From Planctomycetaceae bacterium (GTDB lineage: Bacteria > Planctomycetota > Planctomycetia > Planctomycetales > Planctomycetaceae), in assembly GCA_020426515.1 (NCBI GenBank), contig JAGQPW010000007.1, forward strand, positions 10,908 through 74,907: a stretch of DNA of 64,000 nt, in the 5' to 3' direction. A program made the position numbers and the translations under genes. Of this stretch, positions 51,555-64,000 are shown piece after piece. How positions within the stretch are numbered: the first letter of the stretch is position 1; every line of letters begins with the position of its first letter. The notes below the pieces were generated by a model. That model had not been told where the DNA came from and did not search any database. It worked only from the letters and a program-made list of their open reading frames with translations.

Positions 51555-51861
51555 TGTGGACAACCTGTTGATGAACTGGGTCCGATCCGTGCAGAACGAA
51601 CCTCATCCCGATGGCCGCTCGAATCGGGTGTGCGTAACCCTTGGTTTTACTGACCATCCCTGCACGGCATGTCCACAGAGTATCATGGTGTTTTGAACAC
51701 GATCAGGCGGCCTCTGAATGGCAATAACTTGCGATTTCACCTACACTTCGGATTCAGATTGTGCCGACTCTCCACAATTTTCGGCTCGTCTGTTTCCACT
51801 ACTCCTTTCTCTTTAAGTGTCTGGACCTTCCGGTCTTTCAAATGACCGGAGATGTGGACAA
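51555..51861. promoter_or_regulatory. Cluster of four DnaA-box-like 9-mers upstream of dnaN
   Basis: TGTGGACAA at 51555-51563 and 51853-51861. TGTGGACAT on the reverse strand at 51669-51677. TGTGGAGAG on the reverse strand at 51768-51776. Consensus is TGTGGATAA. Confidence 0.4.
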
Positions 51862-51890
51862 AGCGAACTACACAGCGGAACGGAATTGTC

Positions 51891-53015
51891 ATGAAACTGA
51901 CTGTCTCACGGAGTGAATTGGCCGGTGCGTTTCAAATCGTCGGAGGAGCAGTTCCGTCACGTACCCCCAAGGACATTCTCAAGAACGTTAAACTTGTCGT
52001 CGACAACGGCACGGCCACGCTGATGGGGACCGACCAGGAAGTTGGCATCCGGTATCAGCTGCCTGAGGTTCAGACGGATTCCGTAGGTGAAGTCCTGCTG
52101 CCACCGCAACGGGTCGTGGCTATTCTGCGTGAAGTTCAGGACGACATGATCCACCTGGAAGTCACCGAAGAAACATTGTGGATTCGTTCGGGACAGAGCG
52201 AGTTCCGGCTGTCAGTCGAAGATCCGGCTGAGTTTGCCAATGTGCCGGACTTTCAGGAGGAAAGCTACTACATCATGCAGGGGCGGGCTCTGAAGCAGGG
52301 AATTCAGCGCACGCTGTTCGCTACGGACCCGGAGAGCACACGCTATGCCCTGGGAGGTGTGCTGCTGGAACTCGATCAGGAAGACATCACACTGGCCGCT
52401 ACGGACTCTCGACGGCTGGCCGTGTACAAATCCTCCTGCAAGGCACAGGGAGCCGCCAGCGAAGAGGTAGGCGTTCCGGTCATTCCCTCCAAGGCGATGC
52501 AGCTGATCGACCGCAGCATCCATGATGACGATCAGGAAGTGCATCTGGCCATTCATCAGAACGATGTGCTCATCCGCAGTGGTCTGTCCACCATCTATGC
52601 TCGCCTCGTGGAAGGACGTTTCCCTCGCTACCAGGACGTTATGCCTTCGCACTTCGGGATCACGATTGATCTTGTCGTGGGACCATTTCATTCGGCAGTG
52701 CGGCAGGCCATGATTGTGACCAACGATGGCAGTCACGGAGTCGACTTCCAGTTTGCAGATGGCACGCTCACCCTGACCAGTAGCGGGGCAGATGTCGGGT
52801 CCTCCAAGATTCAGATGCCGATCGGCTACGACGGAGAAGAGTTCACGGTCACGTTTGACCCCAAGTATGTGGCCGACTTCCTGAAGGTTCTCGATCCAGC
52901 CTCACCGGTCAGCCTGAACCTGGTGGATCCGAACTCAGCGGCTGTGTTTAAGTCGGGGGACAACTACACGTACGTGGTGATGCCGTTGTCCAATGAGGAT
53001 CGCGGCGGCCAGTAA
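51891..53015 (+). CDS. dnaN: DNA polymerase III beta sliding clamp
   Basis: From ATG 51891: MKLTVSRSELAGAFQIVGGAVPSRTPKDILKNVKL...ATDSRRLAV...YVVMPL. The track start 51852 overlaps a DnaA-box-like site. Confidence 0.95.
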   Translation: MKLTVSRSELAGAFQIVGGAVPSRTPKDILKNVKLVVDNGTATLMGTDQEVGIRYQLPEVQTDSVGEVLLPPQRVVAILREVQDDMIHLEVTEETLWIRSGQSEFRLSVEDPAEFANVPDFQEESYYIMQGRALKQGIQRTLFATDPESTRYALGGVLLELDQEDITLAATDSRRLAVYKSSCKAQGAASEEVGVPVIPSKAMQLIDRSIHDDDQEVHLAIHQNDVLIRSGLSTIYARLVEGRFPRYQDVMPSHFGITIDLVVGPFHSAVRQAMIVTNDGSHGVDFQFADGTLTLTSSGADVGSSKIQMPIGYDGEEFTVTFDPKYVADFLKVLDPASPVSLNLVDPNSAAVFKSGDNYTYVVMPLSNEDRGGQ

Positions 53016-53125
53016 GGATGCCAGGAGAACTGATGGGTTTGGAGTCATGTTGTGCGAGGGAGCGAACTTTGAAGGAGCGACCATTTCGAGGTCATGGAGC
53101 ATCATCTCCCGGTCGAGCCGGGCGG

Positions 53126-53440
53126 ATGCATGCGACTCCCGATCCCGTCAACCTGGCAGATGTTCTCTCGGAACTTTTTGCTCGTCGGGGATACGGTCGG
53201 GTTCAAGGCGATCGACAGCTCAAAGAGGCCTGGACTGCCGTGGCCGGAGAACTCATCTCCGCCAAAACCCGTGTTCAGGGACTACGCAACGGCGTTCTTC
53301 AGGTGGGGGTTTCCAGTTCTGGACTTCTCAGCCAGCTGGTTTCGTTTCAAAGGGTGGAGTTGCTGGAAAAACTTCAAACAGAACATCCCGAACTGAAGAT
53401 CCGCGATTTGAAATTTCGCCTGCAGGGAAGAATGCGATGA
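53126..53440 (+). CDS. DUF721 (DciA-like) protein in the recF position
   Basis: LADVLSELFARRGYGRVQGDRQLKEAWTAVAGELISAKTRVQGLRNGVLQVGVSSSGLLSQLVSFQRVELLEKL fits the DUF721 pattern. ATG 53126 is preferred; the longest ORF starts at 53018. Confidence 0.65.
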   Translation: MHATPDPVNLADVLSELFARRGYGRVQGDRQLKEAWTAVAGELISAKTRVQGLRNGVLQVGVSSSGLLSQLVSFQRVELLEKLQTEHPELKIRDLKFRLQGRMR

Positions 53441-53476: not shown

Positions 53477-56140
<2,664 letters not shown>

Positions 56141-56309: not shown

Positions 56310-57701
56310 TTAATAGGTGAATCCTGGATTGAAACCATTCAATGGGTTGGTTGCCGATACCACTGACCGACTGCTTGGGTCGCGTAGAGTCATGTCGATC
56401 ACTTCTGCCCTAGCCCCCCCATTTAGGAATCGCAGAACTTCCGCGATTACGAGTGAGGCGGCCGCTGTGCCAACAAACGGCGCGCCCACAGACCGCGTGG
56501 CGAGTTGAACCAAGCCGCAGTCATCCATTCCCTTAGCCGACAAATCCTGGTACGCAGCTCCATTCGGTCCTCGGGAGCGATGTACCTCAACATCACTCCA
56601 TTTCCGGCGTGCCGTGGTCGTTGCAGGGAAGGTGTGAACGCGCAGGGCAAGGTATTCCGTCGGACCTGACCCTAAGCCGGATTCGACAATCCAGTCAAAG
56701 CCAGCGTCTTCGTATGCGGCCCGCGCTTGGGGATTATCCACACCTCCAAGTGCCAATCGAGGTTCCTGCTCGGTAACCTTCATTCCCCCGGGGAATGGGC
56801 GCTCGATGACTCTTGCGTTGAAACCGCGCGCTTCTGCCCACTCCGCCATCGTCCTGGTTTTGAGGCGACCAATAAGCTCGCCGCTGGTGAGAAGTGAGGT
56901 ACTGTCGTTGGACTCGGCAAGCCGATCGAAATCCTGCAAGTAGAGCATCACCTTCGAAGGGTCTGCGTAGGGTAACAAGCCGAGCACCCATAGATAGGCT
57001 TGCCCAAGATGGCCGAGCCCAATCAGCCAAAGGTTCGCTGGGAAAACGATGTCGAGCGGACCGGCAGGTGCATTTTCCCAATCAATCGACTCTGGACTCC
57101 AGAGTGAAAGGCCGACGCGCCGCCGACCGGCCATCGGGTTGCCGCGCAAGTTTTGAAAGACCTCCGAGAGGGCAATCGCCGAAGCGAGAATTGCTGCTGG
57201 AGTGATTGCCCTTTGTGAGGGTAGCGAGTGTGAATCGGCTTGCGGCACAACGCCGCCGCGCCAATCGCTGAAGATGACATTCAGGCAAATTTGGTGCTCG
57301 TTCGATGTGCGATTCACACTGCCCAGAATCAGCGTAGGCATCGTCCCGGCGACTTCGTTAATCGCGTGCCCACCGAGGGCGGCTACGGCTCCAGCAAGGG
57401 TTCGTTGGCCGGGAACCGGAACTAGCAGCGGAGTGTCGAGACTCCCTTCGATGTAGACGCCACCGAGTAGTGCACGTCGCGCAACATTGACGAGAGTGAG
57501 CAGAGCAGCCTGATGGGCAGGAGACTTCTGAACCTCTGGGCCGACACGAACACCGATACGATACGTGCGAAACAGATAGTACCCGTCGGCAACGGTTGCG
57601 ACTTCGCCGCTATCAATCGCGATTTTCACAACGCGACTGAGTGTATCGGCGCTCGTCTGGCTGCTGTCAAAACTCGTAAAGGGCATTACTTCGGAAATCA
57701 T
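56310..57701 (-). CDS. bilD: E1-like (ThiF/MoeB-family) ubiquitin-like-activating enzyme, BilD-like
   Basis: Rossmann LWLIGLGHLGQAYL (GxGxxG) in the C-terminal half, preceded by an N-terminal second lobe. ATG 57701 overlaps the JAB stop (ATGA). The track ORF start 57761 is a TTG inside the JAB gene. Confidence 0.8.
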   Translation of the reverse strand: MISEVMPFTSFDSSQTSADTLSRVVKIAIDSGEVATVADGYYLFRTYRIGVRVGPEVQKSPAHQAALLTLVNVARRALLGGVYIEGSLDTPLLVPVPGQRTLAGAVAALGGHAINEVAGTMPTLILGSVNRTSNEHQICLNVIFSDWRGGVVPQADSHSLPSQRAITPAAILASAIALSEVFQNLRGNPMAGRRRVGLSLWSPESIDWENAPAGPLDIVFPANLWLIGLGHLGQAYLWVLGLLPYADPSKVMLYLQDFDRLAESNDSTSLLTSGELIGRLKTRTMAEWAEARGFNARVIERPFPGGMKVTEQEPRLALGGVDNPQARAAYEDAGFDWIVESGLGSGPTEYLALRVHTFPATTTARRKWSDVEVHRSRGPNGAAYQDLSAKGMDDCGLVQLATRSVGAPFVGTAAASLVIAEVLRFLNGGARAEVIDMTLRDPSSRSVVSATNPLNGFNPGFTY

Positions 57702-58183
57702 ATTAAACCCCAACTGACTTTGAGGACGGAGCGGGCTTGCCAACCGCTGAGGTTGGTCCAACGATGGTCACCTTCGTAGTGAAACACGCCGAGCCGGTGA
57801 CGCCAGATCCATCCAAACGCATAGTTCGGAACGATGATCGCAAGATGTCCGGCGCGAGCAATCATGGGGTTTGTTCGGTCCACCTCGCTTTGGAATGCCC
57901 CGGCAGGGTGCGTGTGTATGTCGGCGATGACGGTTAGCTTTTCTGCGCGGCAGATCTCCCAAAGGCGGGTAAACGAGTCGCCCTGCAGAATGCAGACGCC
58001 GATCGAATATGCTTGCGGGTCAAGCTCATCATAGAACACGCAACGATGCGCTTGCCGTTTATCGCCTTTGACAGTTCCAAGAATGAAGCACCCGGATTCG
58101 TGCCGACCGTGGCTCCTGAATTGAAGCTCCGTCATGCAGCGAAGCCAAAGACTTCGCTGGAATCGAATCAGCGGCTTAGCCAC
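57698..58183 (-). CDS. bilC: JAB/MPN (JAMM) metallopeptidase, BilC-like deconjugating/processing enzyme
   Basis: HESGCFILG (Glu) followed by [16 protein letters not shown] (HxH...SxxD JAMM motif). The GTG start overlaps the E2 stop by 8 nt. Confidence 0.85.
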
Positions 58184-58649
58184 CTCGCACTCCTTTGTAG
58201 TCGCTTGAATTGAGTAAGGAATGAAGTTCGTCCAAGTAGAGGACTACACCTCGGCTTGGCGACCACTGAAGGGCGGGGTATTCATTTCGCCAGTTGTCGT
58301 GCCCCACCGCAGCGATTCGATCGCAAGGCAGGTAGAGGCATGTTCCATCTTTCCACTCGGGTCTGAAGACCGCTGGAATCCGAGACGCTCCACCGGGCCA
58401 TCGATTGAAGGGAAGCGGCTGGTCTGCTTCGTGATCCCACGGCCGAGCCGTGGGAGCCTCTTGCGAATAGCCGCTGCAATCGAAGCGAAACCAGTATTCA
58501 TTTGGAGCCCCGTCGCGAGCTGCCGCTGCGACGGCAATCTGCACGATAGGCCAGGCGATTGAACCCAGCTTCCAACGATTCAGGTGAACCCCGAGTTGGA
58601 AAGCACCCGCCGCGACGTGGTCGCGGAAGGCACGCTCATCGGGACGCAT
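58176..58649 (-). CDS. bilB: E2-like ubiquitin-like-conjugating enzyme, BilB-like
   Basis: From ATG 58649: [20 protein letters not shown]...[20 protein letters not shown]...FNRWPGG...[20 protein letters not shown], with candidate catalytic Cys residues. The assignment comes from its position between the Ubl and JAB genes plus an E2-like size and pattern. The upstream part of the track ORF overlaps the Ubl gene and is rejected. Confidence 0.65.
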
Positions 58650-58668: not shown

Positions 58669-59163
58669 CTAGCCCTCGACGCGTTTGATGGGCACCAGGT
58701 TGAAACAGAGCGAGCAGCATCCGCACACCAGGGTTCCGATTTGCGTGTCCGGCTCCGGGCGGTCGTCGGAGCCGCAGATTTGGAGCACGTGCTCGGTAGC
58801 ATCGACGGGCGACATGCCAATCGCATGCACAAAGCGTTTCTTCACATGGTCGACCGTGTTTGCAGTGGGAAACTGCATGACCTCGGTTAACTCGTTGAAG
58901 TGCAGCGTGACTTCGACTTTGCGGCAGCGGTGAACGTGCACTCGGTGCTTGTCGCAAATGCCTTGTTTGCTCAGCGCGACATCGGGCTTGAGCGGGGTTT
59001 CGTCATCGGAACCGAAGACATGTGCATCCGCGCGATGCTTCTCGGGGAACCCGAGTTTCACAGCGGCTTCCAACACGTCAGCGACCGAGGCTTCGCTGTC
59101 GAGTTGGATGAGTTCCACTCCGCGACTGCCTTCGAACTGCAGGAATAATTGAATTTTCGACAT
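58669..59163 (-). CDS. bilA: Tandem beta-grasp ubiquitin-like protein ending in Gly, BilA-like
   Basis: 164 aa in two halves of about 80 aa with similar alternating patterns ([12 protein letters not shown]... and [14 protein letters not shown]...). The C-terminus ...LVPIKRVEG is followed immediately by the stop codon. First gene of the four-gene cluster. Confidence 0.7.
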
Positions 59164-59346
59164 TGGCCTTGTTCCTCTCTCGTTACTGGTTGAAGCTTGT
59201 CGGCCATCATTGGCCTCACACTTTCTTCAACCGGCGAGAAGGCCCAATCGGAAATGTCAGCCGCGAACATTTTTGATGCGGGGAGAGACTTGCAAGCGCA
59301 GCACCGCCGCCGAGCGACGGAACTGGTACTGACAAGAACTTGCTGC

Positions 59347-62300
59347 CTAGCGAGTAGGGCCTTGGGCCGGGCAGATAAAGAAGTATGGACAGGACGGACA
59401 GCGTTGGCTTAGCCTCGGGTCGAAGCGTCCGTTACCGGCTGCGGCAATGGCGCTTTCGCAAGCCTTCAACTTGTCCCCCGCCTTTTTCGATTTGTCGGTT
59501 GCAGCTCGACGTTCACCGTCGAGCAGAGACACATGCTCGAAGTGGACTTCTTCGTTGGGATGGTCGGAGCGAATGGCAACCTGCAGGAGAATGTATCGCG
59601 GTTTGTCCTCTTCGGATTTAGCCAGTCGCCCAGCCTTCAACCTACGGATGACGATTCCATTCGGAGTTCGTTCAATCTGATCTGCGCGACAACTGATGAC
59701 CGCGCCGTTTCCGGGGGCGACAACTTGCCGTGCCGCGGGCAAGTTCTCCCCGCTCATCACCCCGTGCGCCGCCTCGATCATGGCCTTCGCCATGCGGCGG
59801 TAAAGGGGCTCGAAAGGATGATCGCCTGGGCCGAATTTCTCCCAGTCCTCCTCGAAGCGGGCGATTAGACCGTCCCGTCGTTCGTCTGCCGATGCGGTCT
59901 CGCGTAGCCAAGCCATGCTCGCATGCAGTGCTGATTGGAACTTGAGAAACGGCGAGGCGGCGTCTGCTCCGCCAAGTTCTAGGGCGTGATCGTAGTAGAA
60001 TCGGCGAGGGCAATCGATATAGGTCTCGATTTCCCTTGCTGTCCACCGGTCGTTCGCCATTCGCCCGACGAGCAAGGGAAAAGTCGGCTCGGGAATGCCG
60101 TCAGCGGTCCACCTAGGCGATACGTCTATGCGGTGTGGCAAATGGGAAGAAACTGTTTCGAGAAACCGCGAGGGCCTCGTATTTCGCATGCCATTTGTCT
60201 GCGCTCGCGAAAGGTGCAAACCGTCTCTGGCACGGGACGCTCCAACGAAGAACAGGCTGTCCTCTTCTGCATCTCTGGTCATCAACACGTCGGAACTAAT
60301 CAGTCCAGGTGGAAGCGGACACGGCTCGTATCTGTTGGGGGCCGGAAACTGTGTGCCAGTCAGAGCAAGGATATGAACGATGGGAAACTCTAACCCCTTG
60401 CTCGAATGCACTGTCATCAACCGAACCGCATCAATGTCGCTGACCGCGGCGGGCAACTGACGAAGCTGCTTCTCTTCGTCGAGGATTTCGAGACGACGGA
60501 CGTGTGCCAGAAAAGCGCGCTTCGGATCGTCTTTCTTCGACGGCTTGAACGCGAAGGCGAACTGTAGCAATTGGTAGATGGCAAGCCGCCGCTGCTGGCC
60601 TGGAACGGTGTCATCTGCCATGAAGGGTTGCAGGTAGCCGCTTCGCCTCAAAAGATACGAAATAAGAAAACGATGCGGCGACAGAGGCCATTCTGCATCT
60701 TGGACGTCGGCGACAAGCCTGGCCAGGCCTTTACGTCCCCGTTGGCTGATACCCGGCACGTTTGCAAAGTCTCGAAGCGTCTTGAGCATCGTCTCTTGCT
60801 GCTCCCGTCGCCTTTGGAACAACGCGCCGATGTCTTCAGCAGGCACGTCATACATTGGCAGCTGCGCGACACGGAAAAGCCCAACTCCCTTGGGCTCAGC
60901 GACGAGAGACAAGAGTGAGAGTAGGTCGCGGATCTCGGGGCGCTCGAAAAAGTCCCCGAAGTACAGACAGGGCACGCAAGCATCTTCAAGTTGCTTTGCC
61001 AGCCGTGAAAGGATCGTGTGCGATCGAGCGAGAATGGCGTGGTCGGCGAATTTTGAACCGGCCTCCACTCTTGCCAGAATTTCCTTGGCGATGCCGTGCG
61101 CTTCGGCTTCACGAGTCGTGGCCACGTCGTACTGAACGGTACCGTGATTCGCTCCGCGATTTGCAGTCAGCGCTCCTGTGGTGGCGCTCGCACCAGCCGC
61201 CATCCCTCGGCCAAACGATTCGAACAGCTTCACGATTCGTCCGCCTGAGCGATAGTTGACAGAGAGGTCTGTCGTCTTTGCTCCAGGAAACTCATGCGAG
61301 AACCGAGCCATATTGAGAGGCGATGCACCTCGGAAGCGATAAATCGATTGTCGGACATCTCCGACAACCCACGGTCCGCGACCTGGGGTGCAAAGTTCCT
61401 TGAGCAGCAAGGCGCTGGCGCGATTCATGTCTTGATATTCATCGACAAGAACGTGACGCTTGTCATTGCGGACAGCCTCTCGCACCTCGGGGTTATCGCG
61501 GAGCAGTTTGATTGGCAGGGCGACGAGATCGCCGAAGTCGACGACGCCCCGTTCCCTCAACGCTGCTTCGTAGATGGCGTAGATTCGGGCGACTTCTATC
61601 GCTCGATCCGCCGCCTTCTGTGAATCTTGGTCGGTAGATTCTTCTGCCATCGCCCTGGCAGCATTCATGTAGTCGTCAGGTGAGGCGAGTTCATCTTTTG
61701 CCCGACCGATAGCCCCGAGTATCGAGCGCAGTTTCAGCATCGGCTCGTGCAGATCGAGGTAGTGACTCAGTTCCAGACTTGGAAGCAAGTCTTCCAACAG
61801 CATCAATGAATCGGTGCGATCGAGAAGCTTTGGTTCAGATTCAAAACCCAGCAAGTGACCATGCTTTCGCAAAAGTTCCAGTCCGAAAGCATGAAACGTT
61901 CCGGACCAAATCGCAGTGGCCTTTTCTCCGACTTCTGATCGAATCCGACTCGCCAGATCTTGTGCAGACAGATTGGAGTAGGTAAGTGCCAGAATCGAAC
62001 AGGGTGCTTCGCCTCTACTGATTAGGTGGGCGATTCGTCCGACTAGAGTTCTTGTCTTTCCGGTTCCGGGACCTGCTCTGACCTGTCGTGGTTCATCCGT
62101 AGCGGTGATTGCCTCTAGCTGGCTTGCGTCAGGTTCGGTTTCACGGCGTGGTTCAGATTGCGTATTACCTTCGGCTGGCAGTAACAGAGCGTCGGCCAGT
62201 TGCTGCATGACAAGATCGACCGGGATGCCGATCTCGCTAGCGATGGCATCGGATTCGGGTATGCCGCTGGAACAACGTTGTCGGAGCTTGTTTCGAGGGA

Positions 62301-62721
62301 GGAGAAACTCTCTAGCGAACAGGTTGGCTTGGGCTTCTGCACGTTCCTTCGGACTGTACGAGTCCTGATCTCCGACGGAGGACATCTCTGGTTCTGAAGG
62401 AACCAGGAGATCCAAGTCCGCATTGGCGCAGGCCGCTCCGGCCTCATCGAGCCAGTGGTGTGCGAACTCATGCGCAATGTGGAAATGCGCAAGTGGTAAC
62501 GGAGTGGCATTCGAGTAGTAGATTCTCTGACGTTCTCGATCGTACGCAGCCTCCGCTCCATCCAGAAGTGTGTCATCTGGAGGCCGACTGACGAACCTTA
62601 TTCCTGTTGCCGCTTGTGCGGCAGCCAGAAGGGCACTTGCCGTAATGAGTGCGTCTGCGCCGTTGTCAAACTCGCTATGACGTTGTTTCGCCAAACGTCG
62701 AACTTCCTTCCACGCGCTCAT
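59347..62721 (-). CDS. Three-domain fusion: ImmA/IrrE-type Zn-peptidase + UvrD/Rep SF1 helicase + Cas4/AddB-like Fe-S nuclease domain
   Basis: Peptidase: HIAHEFAHHW (HExxH) plus ERAEAQANLFAREFLLP. Helicase: AGPGTGKT, VDEYQDMN, GDVRQSIYRFRGA, VNYRS, MTVHSSKGLEFP, FFVGASRAR. C-terminus: YIDCPRRFYY ... CPSCPYFFIC (C...CxxCx5C). Confidence 0.85.
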   Translation of the reverse strand: MSAWKEVRRLAKQRHSEFDNGADALITASALLAAAQAATGIRFVSRPPDDTLLDGAEAAYDRERQRIYYSNATPLPLAHFHIAHEFAHHWLDEAGAACANADLDLLVPSEPEMSSVGDQDSYSPKERAEAQANLFAREFLLPRNKLRQRCSSGIPESDAIASEIGIPVDLVMQQLADALLLPAEGNTQSEPRRETEPDASQLEAITATDEPRQVRAGPGTGKTRTLVGRIAHLISRGEAPCSILALTYSNLSAQDLASRIRSEVGEKATAIWSGTFHAFGLELLRKHGHLLGFESEPKLLDRTDSLMLLEDLLPSLELSHYLDLHEPMLKLRSILGAIGRAKDELASPDDYMNAARAMAEESTDQDSQKAADRAIEVARIYAIYEAALRERGVVDFGDLVALPIKLLRDNPEVREAVRNDKRHVLVDEYQDMNRASALLLKELCTPGRGPWVVGDVRQSIYRFRGASPLNMARFSHEFPGAKTTDLSVNYRSGGRIVKLFESFGRGMAAGASATTGALTANRGANHGTVQYDVATTREAEAHGIAKEILARVEAGSKFADHAILARSHTILSRLAKQLEDACVPCLYFGDFFERPEIRDLLSLLSLVAEPKGVGLFRVAQLPMYDVPAEDIGALFQRRREQQETMLKTLRDFANVPGISQRGRKGLARLVADVQDAEWPLSPHRFLISYLLRRSGYLQPFMADDTVPGQQRRLAIYQLLQFAFAFKPSKKDDPKRAFLAHVRRLEILDEEKQLRQLPAAVSDIDAVRLMTVHSSKGLEFPIVHILALTGTQFPAPNRYEPCPLPPGLISSDVLMTRDAEEDSLFFVGASRARDGLHLSRAQTNGMRNTRPSRFLETVSSHLPHRIDVSPRWTADGIPEPTFPLLVGRMANDRWTAREIETYIDCPRRFYYDHALELGGADAASPFLKFQSALHASMAWLRETASADERRDGLIARFEEDWEKFGPGDHPFEPLYRRMAKAMIEAAHGVMSGENLPAARQVVAPGNGAVISCRADQIERTPNGIVIRRLKAGRLAKSEEDKPRYILLQVAIRSDHPNEEVHFEHVSLLDGERRAATDKSKKAGDKLKACESAIAAAGNGRFDPRLSQRCPSCPYFFICPAQGPTR

Positions 62722-62731
62722 CTTGGTGCTC

Positions 62732-63355
62732 CTAGTGAGAAGTCTCGCTTGTGACGATTCGTCTCCATTCTTCCTTTATCGGAGTCGAAAGCTCTGACGT
62801 TGTGACTGCGTCGAGGAACGACTCCTGTCGCAGTACCGGCTTTCCCTTCGCCTTGTAGCTCGACAATGGAATTGGATCTCCCATCAATACTCGCGAAACA
62901 TCCTCGACGGCAAATTGCAGTGCCGCAGCAATTCCCTCAATACATCGCTGAGGAATGCTCGCAAAAACAATCAAGTGGCGATCAAGCTTTGCCAATAGCG
63001 TGTCATCGAGTTTGCATTGATCCATCAACGTCTGCTCGGAACATCCCGAGGCGCGGATCATCTTGTGGAGGCGAGATTCGGTCGTAGCTCGCAGTTCGGT
63101 AGTCGGAGCGGTCTGATGGTGAATCAAGTTCAAAGCATGGCTGACCATTTTGCTCGCGACACGATCTTCATCAATTACAGGACGTTCGCCACGCTCTTTC
63201 TGTTCGGCCCACGTCGCAAAAAAGCTCGTAAGCTGATCCCGATGCTCGGGGTAGAGCTCGCACCAACGAAGTAGCGCGTCGTATTGGGGTTCCGGTTCCT
63301 GGAGCATGATTTCATCCAGGATGTCTTCAAATGTCACTTGGTCCTTCCTGTTCAT
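62732..63355 (-). CDS. Hypothetical protein with a possible central HTH, partner of the ImmA-like fusion
   Basis: ATG 63355 overlaps the upstream stop (ATGA). Its stop lies 10 nt before the fusion-gene ATG, with AGGAG in between. The segment IRASGCSEQTLMDQCKLDDTLLAKLDR looks HTH-like by eye. Confidence 0.5.
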   Translation of the reverse strand: MNRKDQVTFEDILDEIMLQEPEPQYDALLRWCELYPEHRDQLTSFFATWAEQKERGERPVIDEDRVASKMVSHALNLIHHQTAPTTELRATTESRLHKMIRASGCSEQTLMDQCKLDDTLLAKLDRHLIVFASIPQRCIEGIAAALQFAVEDVSRVLMGDPIPLSSYKAKGKPVLRQESFLDAVTTSELSTPIKEEWRRIVTSETSH

Positions 63356-64000
63356 ATTGATTCTCCCAGTGCAGTACGCATTTGCATCATCGCCCCTTTG
63401 AGCCAATTCTGGATCTGTCGCGGAGACTTCTTAAAATGCGTGCTGAGAGTTGGTTTTGCGATTTCTGTACTTGAGATTTGCCATCCTTGGAGATGATGTA
63501 AAATGACCGCCTCGCGATGAAGTGGATTCGAAATAGCGGCAAGTGCTTTTCGAACCTGTTCGGGCCGAAGACGTTGTGCTTCGGCGAGCAGTGCTATCTC
63601 GCCAGGGTCTGGTTTCCCGTCCGAGTGGGAGGCAATGACTCCATCGTTGTCCTCGCCAATATCCTTGGCCTGAATTCTCGACTCGCTGCATTCGTGCTTC
63701 AATCGTTCTTTGAGTTTCGAGCGTTTGTTGATCGCACGCCGCTCAATCGCTCTGCGAAAGACGATTTCCAGAATCTCGCTTTGCCGACTCGGCGTGCTTG
63801 TGAAGATGAGCAGATTGACCTCTTCGGCAATCTCAATCGCAAATTCTTCGGCGATGTTGGGCGGGAAACCAGATGCGAAATCTCTTGCAATCTGAGCGAT
63901 GCGTTTTCCCAAGCACTCAATCAGCCTCCCGATGTTTTTCTGGTCGTTGCAACGCCAAAGCCATCGAATGAGGTAAACCAGAGTCTCACTCTTCAACGCG
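63352..64000 (-). CDS. Sigma-70-family (ECF-like) protein, probably N-terminally truncated by window end
   Basis: Region-4-like LHREAVILHHLQGWQISSTEIAKPTLSTHFKKSPRQIQNWLKGAMMQMRTAL and region-2-like FAIEIAEEVNLLIF...ILEIVFRRAIERRAINKR. The reading frame is open to the window edge. Confidence 0.5.
   Translation of the reverse strand, partial: ALKSETLVYLIRWLWRCNDQKNIGRLIECLGKRIAQIARDFASGFPPNIAEEFAIEIAEEVNLLIFTSTPSRQSEILEIVFRRAIERRAINKRSKLKERLKHECSESRIQAKDIGEDNDGVIASHSDGKPDPGEIALLAEAQRLRPEQVRKALAAISNPLHREAVILHHLQGWQISSTEIAKPTLSTHFKKSPRQIQNWLKGAMMQMRTALGESI

Follow-up and report, generated by a model that had tools for sequence, protein, structure and literature searches.

A helicase-fused M78 peptidase in a conserved three-gene module upstream of Type I Bil operons: candidate sensor of a transcriptional defence switch

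The DNA analysed here (the window) is a 64 000 nt stretch of a Planctomycetaceae bacterium genome (GenBank assembly GCA_020426515.1, contig JAGQPW010000007.1, positions 10 908–74 907 of the forward strand). At 59347..62721 it carries a gene for a protein of 1124 amino acids (aa) in which an M78 peptidase, a superfamily 1 (SF1) UvrD-type helicase and an iron–sulphur (Fe–S) RecB/Cas4-like domain are joined in one polypeptide (the fusion). The fusion gene stands third in a cassette of seven genes on one strand, in the order g1, g2, fusion, bilA, bilB, bilC and bilD, the last four forming a Type I Bil operon, which encodes a ubiquitin-like (Ubl) conjugation system. All genes, domains and motifs of this cassette described below are on the minus strand, and coordinates are those of the window. 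In this work it is proposed that g1, g2 and the fusion gene probably form a three-gene module which switches on the adjacent defence operon, here BilABCD, with the fusion as its DNA-sensing sensor-protease.

The three modules of the fusion had been described in the original prediction, made from the letters alone. All the motifs quoted there were present in the translated open reading frame (ORF) (HEFAHH, ERAEAQANLFAREFLLP, AGPGTGKT, VDEYQD, GDVRQSIYRFRGA, VNYRS, HSSKGLEFP, VGASRAR, CPRRFYY, CPSCPYFFIC and RRLK), and each domain was borne out by profile searches against Pfam. The CapP/ImmA/IrrE-like M78 peptidase domain (residues 55–171; 62209..62559) matched Peptidase_M78 (PF06114) above the gathering score (E = 5e-11) and possesses both the HExxH motif, encoded at 62458–62472, and the downstream Glu ligand that define M78 membership. 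The best PADLOC match of the isolated N-terminal domain was capP (E = 4.9e-11), and a direct sequence search of the PDB with the M78 domain returned nothing meaningful. Conservation was assessed in an alignment of 34 diverse fusion relatives, in which residues H84, H88, E129, A132, N133 and P142 of the peptidase site were invariant and E85 was present in 33.

The SF1A helicase core (residues 199–866; 60124..62127) was matched by the Pfam families UvrD-helicase (residues 199–479, E = 7e-63), UvrD_C and UvrD_C_2, and the SF1 motifs were all conserved among the relatives. The solved structures nearest to this core are those of PcrA, UvrD and Rep, and 3.2 kb separate the gene from gyrB in the window, as might be expected if the fusion were a housekeeping repair helicase, a paralogue of UvrD/PcrA or AdnAB, that stands near dnaN–gyrB and the Bil operon by chance. 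Its scores against the NCBIfam equivalog models, however, fell far short of the cut-offs (PcrA, 305 against 911 bits; Rep, 265 against 951; UvrD, 253 against 1144), and for this reason it is classified from its sequence as an SF1A helicase that is not an orthologue of the UvrD, PcrA or Rep repair enzymes. The gene is, moreover, linked to g1, g2 and either Bil or Type II Bub operons across phyla and on plasmids, whatever its chromosomal position, and its distribution is patchy, with two copies in Tautonia sociabilis. A housekeeping role therefore seems extremely improbable.

The C-terminal RecB/AddB/Cas4-type domain (residues 892–1118; 59368..60048) matched PDDEXK_1 (PF12705, E = 1e-12) and has the Fe–S cysteine pattern C...CxxCx5C of the AddB, AdnA/B and Cas4 type. 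Cys residues 904, 1108 and 1111 were invariant and C1117 was found in 33 of the 34 relatives, the exception having Asn. Of the catalytic D...(D/E)xK triad, D1014 was retained (33/34 relatives) but the second acidic residue was replaced. A phmmer alignment with mycobacterial AdnA set 'IVIRRLKAG' of the fusion opposite 'LVVVDLKTG', from which it follows that R1027 occupies the position of the catalytic Asp; this column contained Arg in 30 relatives, Gln in two and His in two, and never an acidic residue. The earlier by-eye placing of RRLK at the expected (D/E)xK position was thus borne out, and across the whole family. The domain is probably an Fe–S pseudo-nuclease, dead as a nuclease, and DNA cutting by the fusion is unlikely because the Asp of the DxK motif is replaced by Arg family-wide. 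The loss of the catalytic acid throughout the family argues for DNA sensing rather than DNA degradation. An active nuclease was considered as a candidate and ruled out by the AdnA alignment together with the column counts.

The same residues bear on the possibility that the fusion is a stand-alone anti-phage helicase–nuclease that attacks phage DNA, comparable to AddAB, AdnAB, Gabija GajB or Nhi, and in which the peptidase plays an accessory part. Such a role would fit the top PADLOC matches (GajB and other defence helicases), the UvrD plus RecB-nuclease layout, which is like that of AddA and AdnA/B, and the occurrence of the gene in defence-island and plasmid contexts; it is difficult to reconcile with an Arg at the nuclease catalytic position. 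The fusion gene was also never solitary, g2 being alongside in most loci and g1 usually too. Membership of Gabija was rejected since the GajB models cover only the generic helicase core and no neighbouring gene matched GajA. A stand-alone effector is therefore considered distinctly unlikely.

More than 120 full-length homologues of the fusion (1110–1130 aa) were found to possess the same domain set, which ruled out the possibility, raised in advance, that the ORF was an artefact of assembly or of a frameshift; it is a genuine single ORF. These homologues range over at least eight phyla, with representatives in the Planctomycetota, Acidobacteriota, Alpha-, Beta- and Gammaproteobacteria, Chloroflexota and Gemmatimonadota, and further ones in the Actinomycetota, Armatimonadota and Cyanobacteria. 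The fusion is thus conserved, and the Bil operon directly downstream of it in the window places it in a defence context. A phage origin was unsupported, as phage records gave matches to the helicase core only.

Two further genes lie upstream of the fusion gene. The first of these to be considered, g2 (62732..63355), encodes a 207-aa protein whose sequence is that of KDA90_02745 (100 % identity). The g1 stop and the g2 start overlap in an ATGA, and 10 nt separate the end of g2 from the fusion ATG. An AlphaFold2 (AF2) model of g2 (predicted local distance difference test score, pLDDT, 79) comprised an N-terminal helical domain, a disordered linker, a central five-helix domain and a conserved C-terminal tail. 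The five-helix domain has an XRE-type helix–turn–helix (HTH) fold, matching C.BclI, SinR, C.AhdI, ClgR and DdrO with target-normalised TM-scores of 0.6–0.74. XRE-type HTH proteins are the type of substrate cleaved by ImmA, IrrE and CapP, and DdrO is the substrate of IrrE. The suggestion that the 207-aa neighbour is a likely substrate of the peptidase gained support from its conservation, its translational coupling and its modelled fold, and g2 is here proposed to be the putative peptidase substrate and an antagonist of the sigma factor or a repressor. A conserved unstructured stretch near residues 158–179 of g2 is a candidate for the cleavage site. At 50 % clustering the g2 family comprises 1331 representatives; with more than 1300 clusters at this identity, it is a protein family so far without annotation. 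Among its distant members, which are on short contigs, was one (L172) in which an M78 N-terminus follows g2.

The second gene, g1 (63352..64000; NCBI KDA90_02750), runs past the end of the window; its ORF is still open at the window edge, and relatives, which are about 271 aa long, possess the N-terminal 55 aa. Sigma70_r4_2 was detected by Pfam in seven of 24 g1 members, with matches to Sigma70_r2 and r4 among the distant ones, whilst annotators have named g1 relatives sigma-24 or sigma-factor-like. The AF2 model of a close full-length homologue, P0181 (pLDDT 81.6), matched only sigma factors when compared with the PDB using Foldseek, mostly extracytoplasmic function (ECF) types over approximately 200 columns, including SigE, AlgU, SigW, SigK and CnrH. 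Sigma-2 and sigma-4 domains were thus recognized by way of the relatives and the P0181 model, and g1 is predicted to be an ECF-like sigma factor.

Directly downstream of the fusion gene, all four genes of a Type I Bil system were found in canonical order, each a strong match to the corresponding PADLOC model. These encode a ubiquitin-like protein of 164 aa with a C-terminal Gly (bilA, 58669..59163; E = 4e-47), an E2-like enzyme (bilB, 58176..58649; E = 6e-61, and Pfam DUF7665/BilB-like E = 7e-61), a JAB deubiquitinase-like peptidase (bilC, 57698..58183; E = 1e-59) and an E1-like enzyme of 463 aa, translated from an ATG that overlaps the bilC stop (bilD, 56310..57701; E = 1e-160). The true start of bilB is probably at 58649, giving a product of 157 aa. 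In this the locus resembles the published Type I BilABCD systems; it differs in its three upstream genes, as the preprints describe operons of four genes and none of them mentions the other three. The window BilA ends in ...KRVEG right before the stop (58669–58674), so that its Gly is exposed without C-terminal trimming, unlike that of the Ensifer Type II BilA, in which C-terminal residues need to be trimmed to expose the Gly (Chambers et al.). A by-eye reading of the translations placed dnaN at 51852–53015, a small DUF721-like ORF at 53018–53440 and gyrB at 53585–56140; the seven-gene cassette therefore adjoins the replication-origin gene cluster, bilD and gyrB being transcribed towards each other.

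The complete arrangement g1–g2–fusion–BilABCD was also present in Rhizobium leguminosarum, Tautonia sociabilis and a Bryobacterales metagenome-assembled genome (MAG). A genome scan with one genome per species yielded 34 loci (two duplicates) with a fusion of at least 40 % identity and sufficient downstream DNA, and BilABCD was found downstream and g1/g2 upstream in all but one of these (L028). In addition, a reverse survey anchored on BilD was made of 50 metagenome loci with sufficient upstream DNA, a sample that is skewed to relatives of the query BilD clade and is not a census of all Bil systems. The fusion gene was directly upstream of bil in 40 of the 50, disrupted copies were present in two more, and another two lacked the fusion but had g1, one of them with g2 as well. 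The remaining six showed no fusion; three of these, with at least 1.3 kb of upstream DNA, were clearly module-less.

Several individual loci showed variations on this arrangement. In L153 (7077–9020), g1, g2 and a TTCCGG element were kept, the fusion was absent and g2 abutted bilA; this Bil locus could be a natural 'sensor-less' variant. Tautonia sociabilis GM2012 carried two diverged, whole g1–g2–fusion–BilABCD cassettes on two contigs (L008 and L009). In the closest relative, a Pirellulales MAG with a 94 % identical cassette (L005, 8690–8780), the g1 ORF was split by a 1-nt insertion, which is probably due to misassembly; over this stretch the window copy is unbroken.

A bipartite promoter-like motif, TTTCCGATTGGGCCTTCTCGCCGGTTGAA, was identified between the fusion stop and bilA (59226..59254), 63 nt before the bilA ATG. 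The motif has the form TTTCCGG-N16–17-CGGTTGA and was found before both g1 and the cargo genes, with TCTTGA, CGATTA, CGATCA and CTATTT as clade variants of the second element. A loose pattern of the motif was present in the fusion–bilA spacer of 27 of 30 non-redundant Bil loci, compared with an expectation of 0.026 per locus, and just upstream of g1 in 19 of 29 loci, an enrichment of approximately 1000-fold over background. Within the BilD-anchored set, the TTCCG[GA] core was found at −160 to −20 of bilA in 38 of the 42 module-linked loci (0.086 expected) and in none of the three clearly module-less Bil loci. A scan of the window fusion–bilA spacer revealed no sigma-70 consensus promoter and no intrinsic terminator. 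The g1 ATG follows the second element by only 8–9 nt, which suggests that the g1 transcript is probably leaderless. Within genomes, the second element co-varied between the g1 and the cargo sites (L002, L021, L084, L090 and L034), as would fit co-evolution of a sigma factor with its promoters. At the sequence level, a cognate motif of this kind, shared by the sigma factor gene and its presumed targets, is what ECF autoregulation would lead one to expect of a putative promoter. The −35 and −10 sequences of the motif differ from the classical ECF consensus.

A short GC-rich hairpin (GGCC-AAUGAU-GGCC) was noted in the bilA leader at 59188–59225 of the window, with a hairpin in the equivalent place in 28 loci. 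It begins within a few nt of the predicted bilA transcript start in all the loci examined, its sequence varying from locus to locus, and in Alphaproteobacteria an outer stem pairs with the ribosome-binding site. Folding energies were not significant alone (z = −0.8 for the window leader and also for the mean).

The surroundings of the fusion are thus richer than in the original prediction, which had picked out the upstream 207-aa protein as a candidate substrate and had missed the Bil operon, the sigma-like g1 and the promoter motif. The presence of these three led to the fusion, which had been offered as a 'defence or sensor protein', being recast as the sensor of a transcriptional switch; the sensor half of that description was retained and a stand-alone defence effector was not.

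Not all modules are followed by Type I Bil genes. Distant homologues of the fusion (34–38 % identity) had the same three domains, with g1-like and g2-like genes upstream. On Acinetobacter, Klebsiella, Agrobacterium (pTi) and Leptolyngbya plasmids, the module was followed by Type II Bub operons, encoding a multiubiquitin, a ThiF-type E2–E1 and a DUF6527 protein, and on plasmid p2 of Pseudomonas koreensis (L086, 10063–16980) an IS66-family insertion parts the module and motif from a bubA homologue about 6.5 kb downstream. The cargo in Pyrinomonadaceae consisted of a small ORF and a 3'–5' exonuclease gene. In one Chloroflexia MAG (L034, 13629–14915), the next gene after the module encoded a WGR-PARP protein, and the motif variant TTTCCA...CTCCTATTT preceded both this gene and g1. 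Four other Chloroflexia loci (L052, L059, L062 and L063) had no obvious cargo; the next gene was greA, preceded by a near-consensus sigma-70 promoter (TTGCAA-N17-TATAAC), and here the module may control genes elsewhere in the genome. The wider surroundings of the module were typical of defence islands and mobile elements and included BrxR/WYL, AbiEii, zeta toxin, methylase, Cas3-like helicase, Tn7 and prophage genes. A BrxR/WYL regulator and SbcC/SbcD-like genes were observed just upstream of the module on plasmids of both Rhizobium leguminosarum (L001, 1083–6165) and Roseovarius pelagicus (L090, 1–4316), the latter with a WGR-domain gene upstream as well; these genes may represent a second linked system.

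The range of cargo is relevant to a further explanation, that the fusion does not regulate transcription and instead works biochemically with the ubiquitin-like conjugation machinery as its direct partner. In this role it might bring Bil or Bub enzymes onto phage DNA or onto DNA–protein complexes, select their targets, or process the Ubl or its conjugates via the M78 peptidase. The great majority of modules adjoin Ubl conjugation operons (Type I Bil, Type II Bub), and the Bub preprints describe Type II Bub operons as typically without a JAB peptidase. Bil, on the other hand, has its own peptidase in BilC; some clades have non-Ubl cargo (the exonuclease and WGR-PARP genes) or no adjacent cargo; and every module brings a sigma-like and an HTH-fold protein, together with a promoter motif of its own. 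A direct partnership is judged unlikely. Against the three explanations considered above stand the dead nuclease, the constancy of the sigma and HTH partners, the non-Ubl cargo and the motif.

Several points nevertheless weigh against the module being a transcriptional switch. The cleavage of g2, the interaction of g1 with g2, the sigma activity of g1 and the activation by DNA are all steps that we infer. Most of the cargo is a ubiquitin-like conjugation system, and this bias could reflect direct biochemical partnership rather than transcriptional control. A published Bil system works in Escherichia coli with the four bil genes only (Hor et al. preprint), and the module is therefore not needed for the core reaction. 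The assignment of g1 as a sigma factor rests on its relatives and a predicted structure, the truncated window copy having matched no Pfam, NCBIfam or PADLOC family. Likewise, g2 matched no family in these three collections, including HTH, capH and anti-sigma families, and the structural matches of its central domain had weak E-values (0.07–0.5), because the domain is short. Finally, the motif could be an operator instead of a promoter.

Under the proposed switch, the UvrD motor and the Fe–S pseudo-nuclease would engage DNA ends or single-stranded DNA (ssDNA) arising from phage replication or DNA damage, and this engagement would activate the N-terminal M78 peptidase of the fusion. The peptidase would then cleave g2, which would until then either hold g1 inactive, as an anti-sigma factor, or occupy the promoters as a repressor; either role for g2 is compatible with this scheme. 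Once freed, g1 would guide RNA polymerase to two promoters, that of g1 itself and that of the cargo, and expression of the Bil machinery would rise. Tentatively, what would be distinctive here is that a translocating SF1 helicase with a disabled Fe–S nuclease may detect the DNA ends or ssDNA and directly gate the M78 protease fused to it, by which an XRE-fold antagonist is possibly destroyed and a dedicated ECF-like sigma factor released.

The closest parallel is with the CapH/CapP regulators of cyclic oligonucleotide-based antiphage signalling systems (CBASS) and other defence operons, kin of ImmR/ImmA and DdrO/IrrE, in which likewise a zinc peptidase of the M78 type has its gene next to that of an HTH-fold partner, ahead of the defence genes. 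The peptidase, CapP, contains a GAF domain; ssDNA activates it, and by cutting the HTH repressor CapH it induces the cargo. For 24 CBASS systems, a sigma-70-family sigma factor gene is reported beside capH and capP (Lau et al., 10.1101/2022.04.27.489752). In the fusion, the GAF sensor domain of CapP is replaced by the SF1 helicase and the Fe–S pseudo-nuclease, approximately 950 additional residues, and the capP profile was matched at positions 44–132 of 242 only, which leaves its C-terminal GAF region without a counterpart. Whilst the modelled XRE-type fold of g2 recalls CapH, g2 has no recognizable CapH or HTH_3 sequence signature and its HTH lies in the middle of the protein. The module is also co-directional with its cargo and possesses its own sigma factor and motif, whereas the capH/capP genes upstream of Type II Bil are divergent and share the cargo promoter region.

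The remainder of the fusion is like AddAB, AdnAB, RecBCD and Cas4 in that a RecB-family domain, with the Cys spacing of AddB, AdnA/B and Cas4, comes after a UvrD-type motor. Unlike AddAB, AdnAB and RecBCD, it is a single polypeptide with an N-terminal peptidase, and no partner subunit is encoded. With ECF sigma/anti-sigma modules such as SigE–RseA and SigW–RsiW, the locus shares a small sigma-2/sigma-4 factor that is co-transcribed with its partner and a motif before both its own gene and the target. The differences are that the presumed protease is cytoplasmic, linked to DNA and fused to a helicase, in place of the membrane site-1 and site-2 proteases of those systems, and that the g2 partner has an XRE HTH fold and no known anti-sigma domain.

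In the Bil preprints, reports of CapH/CapP are confined to Type II Bil, and CapK/CapS is recorded with five Bil operons whose type is not given. The CapK/CapS paper and the preprints on Bil and Bub name CapH/CapP, CapW/BrxR and CapK/CapS as regulators, and no helicase or sigma factor associated with either system is mentioned there. The text of the Bub preprint, supplementary tables aside, contains no account of the fusion, and the 'CapH+CapP' counts in those tables might include it. Neither the fusion nor the three-gene module was described in Iyer et al. (2006) or in the keyword-searched, mostly non-subscription literature; an earlier mention elsewhere is possible, but as far as that literature reaches, the architecture is undescribed, as had been supposed. 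The module would thus represent a new variant of the CapH/CapP-type M78/HTH regulators, which respond to DNA damage and govern defence operons, the new elements being a motor helicase as sensor and a sigma factor as output.

Bil and Bub systems are the bacterial counterparts of ubiquitin/ISG15 conjugation. If the proposal is true, many plasmid-borne Bub operons of Type II, and a substantial proportion of the Type I Bil operons, bring their own sensor and sigma factor, and the module would be the native on-switch of many of these operons; it is spread over many phyla and is carried by large plasmids in Acinetobacter, Klebsiella, Agrobacterium and Rhizobium. It would offer a directly testable pathway of Bil induction with a defined promoter, and would constitute a new cytoplasmic route to sigma-factor activation. 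The fusion would be the first M78 regulatory protease found with an ATP-driven DNA motor as its sensor, and a sigma-based type would be added to the DNA-damage-responsive defence regulators represented by CapW/BrxR, CapH/CapP and CapK/CapS.

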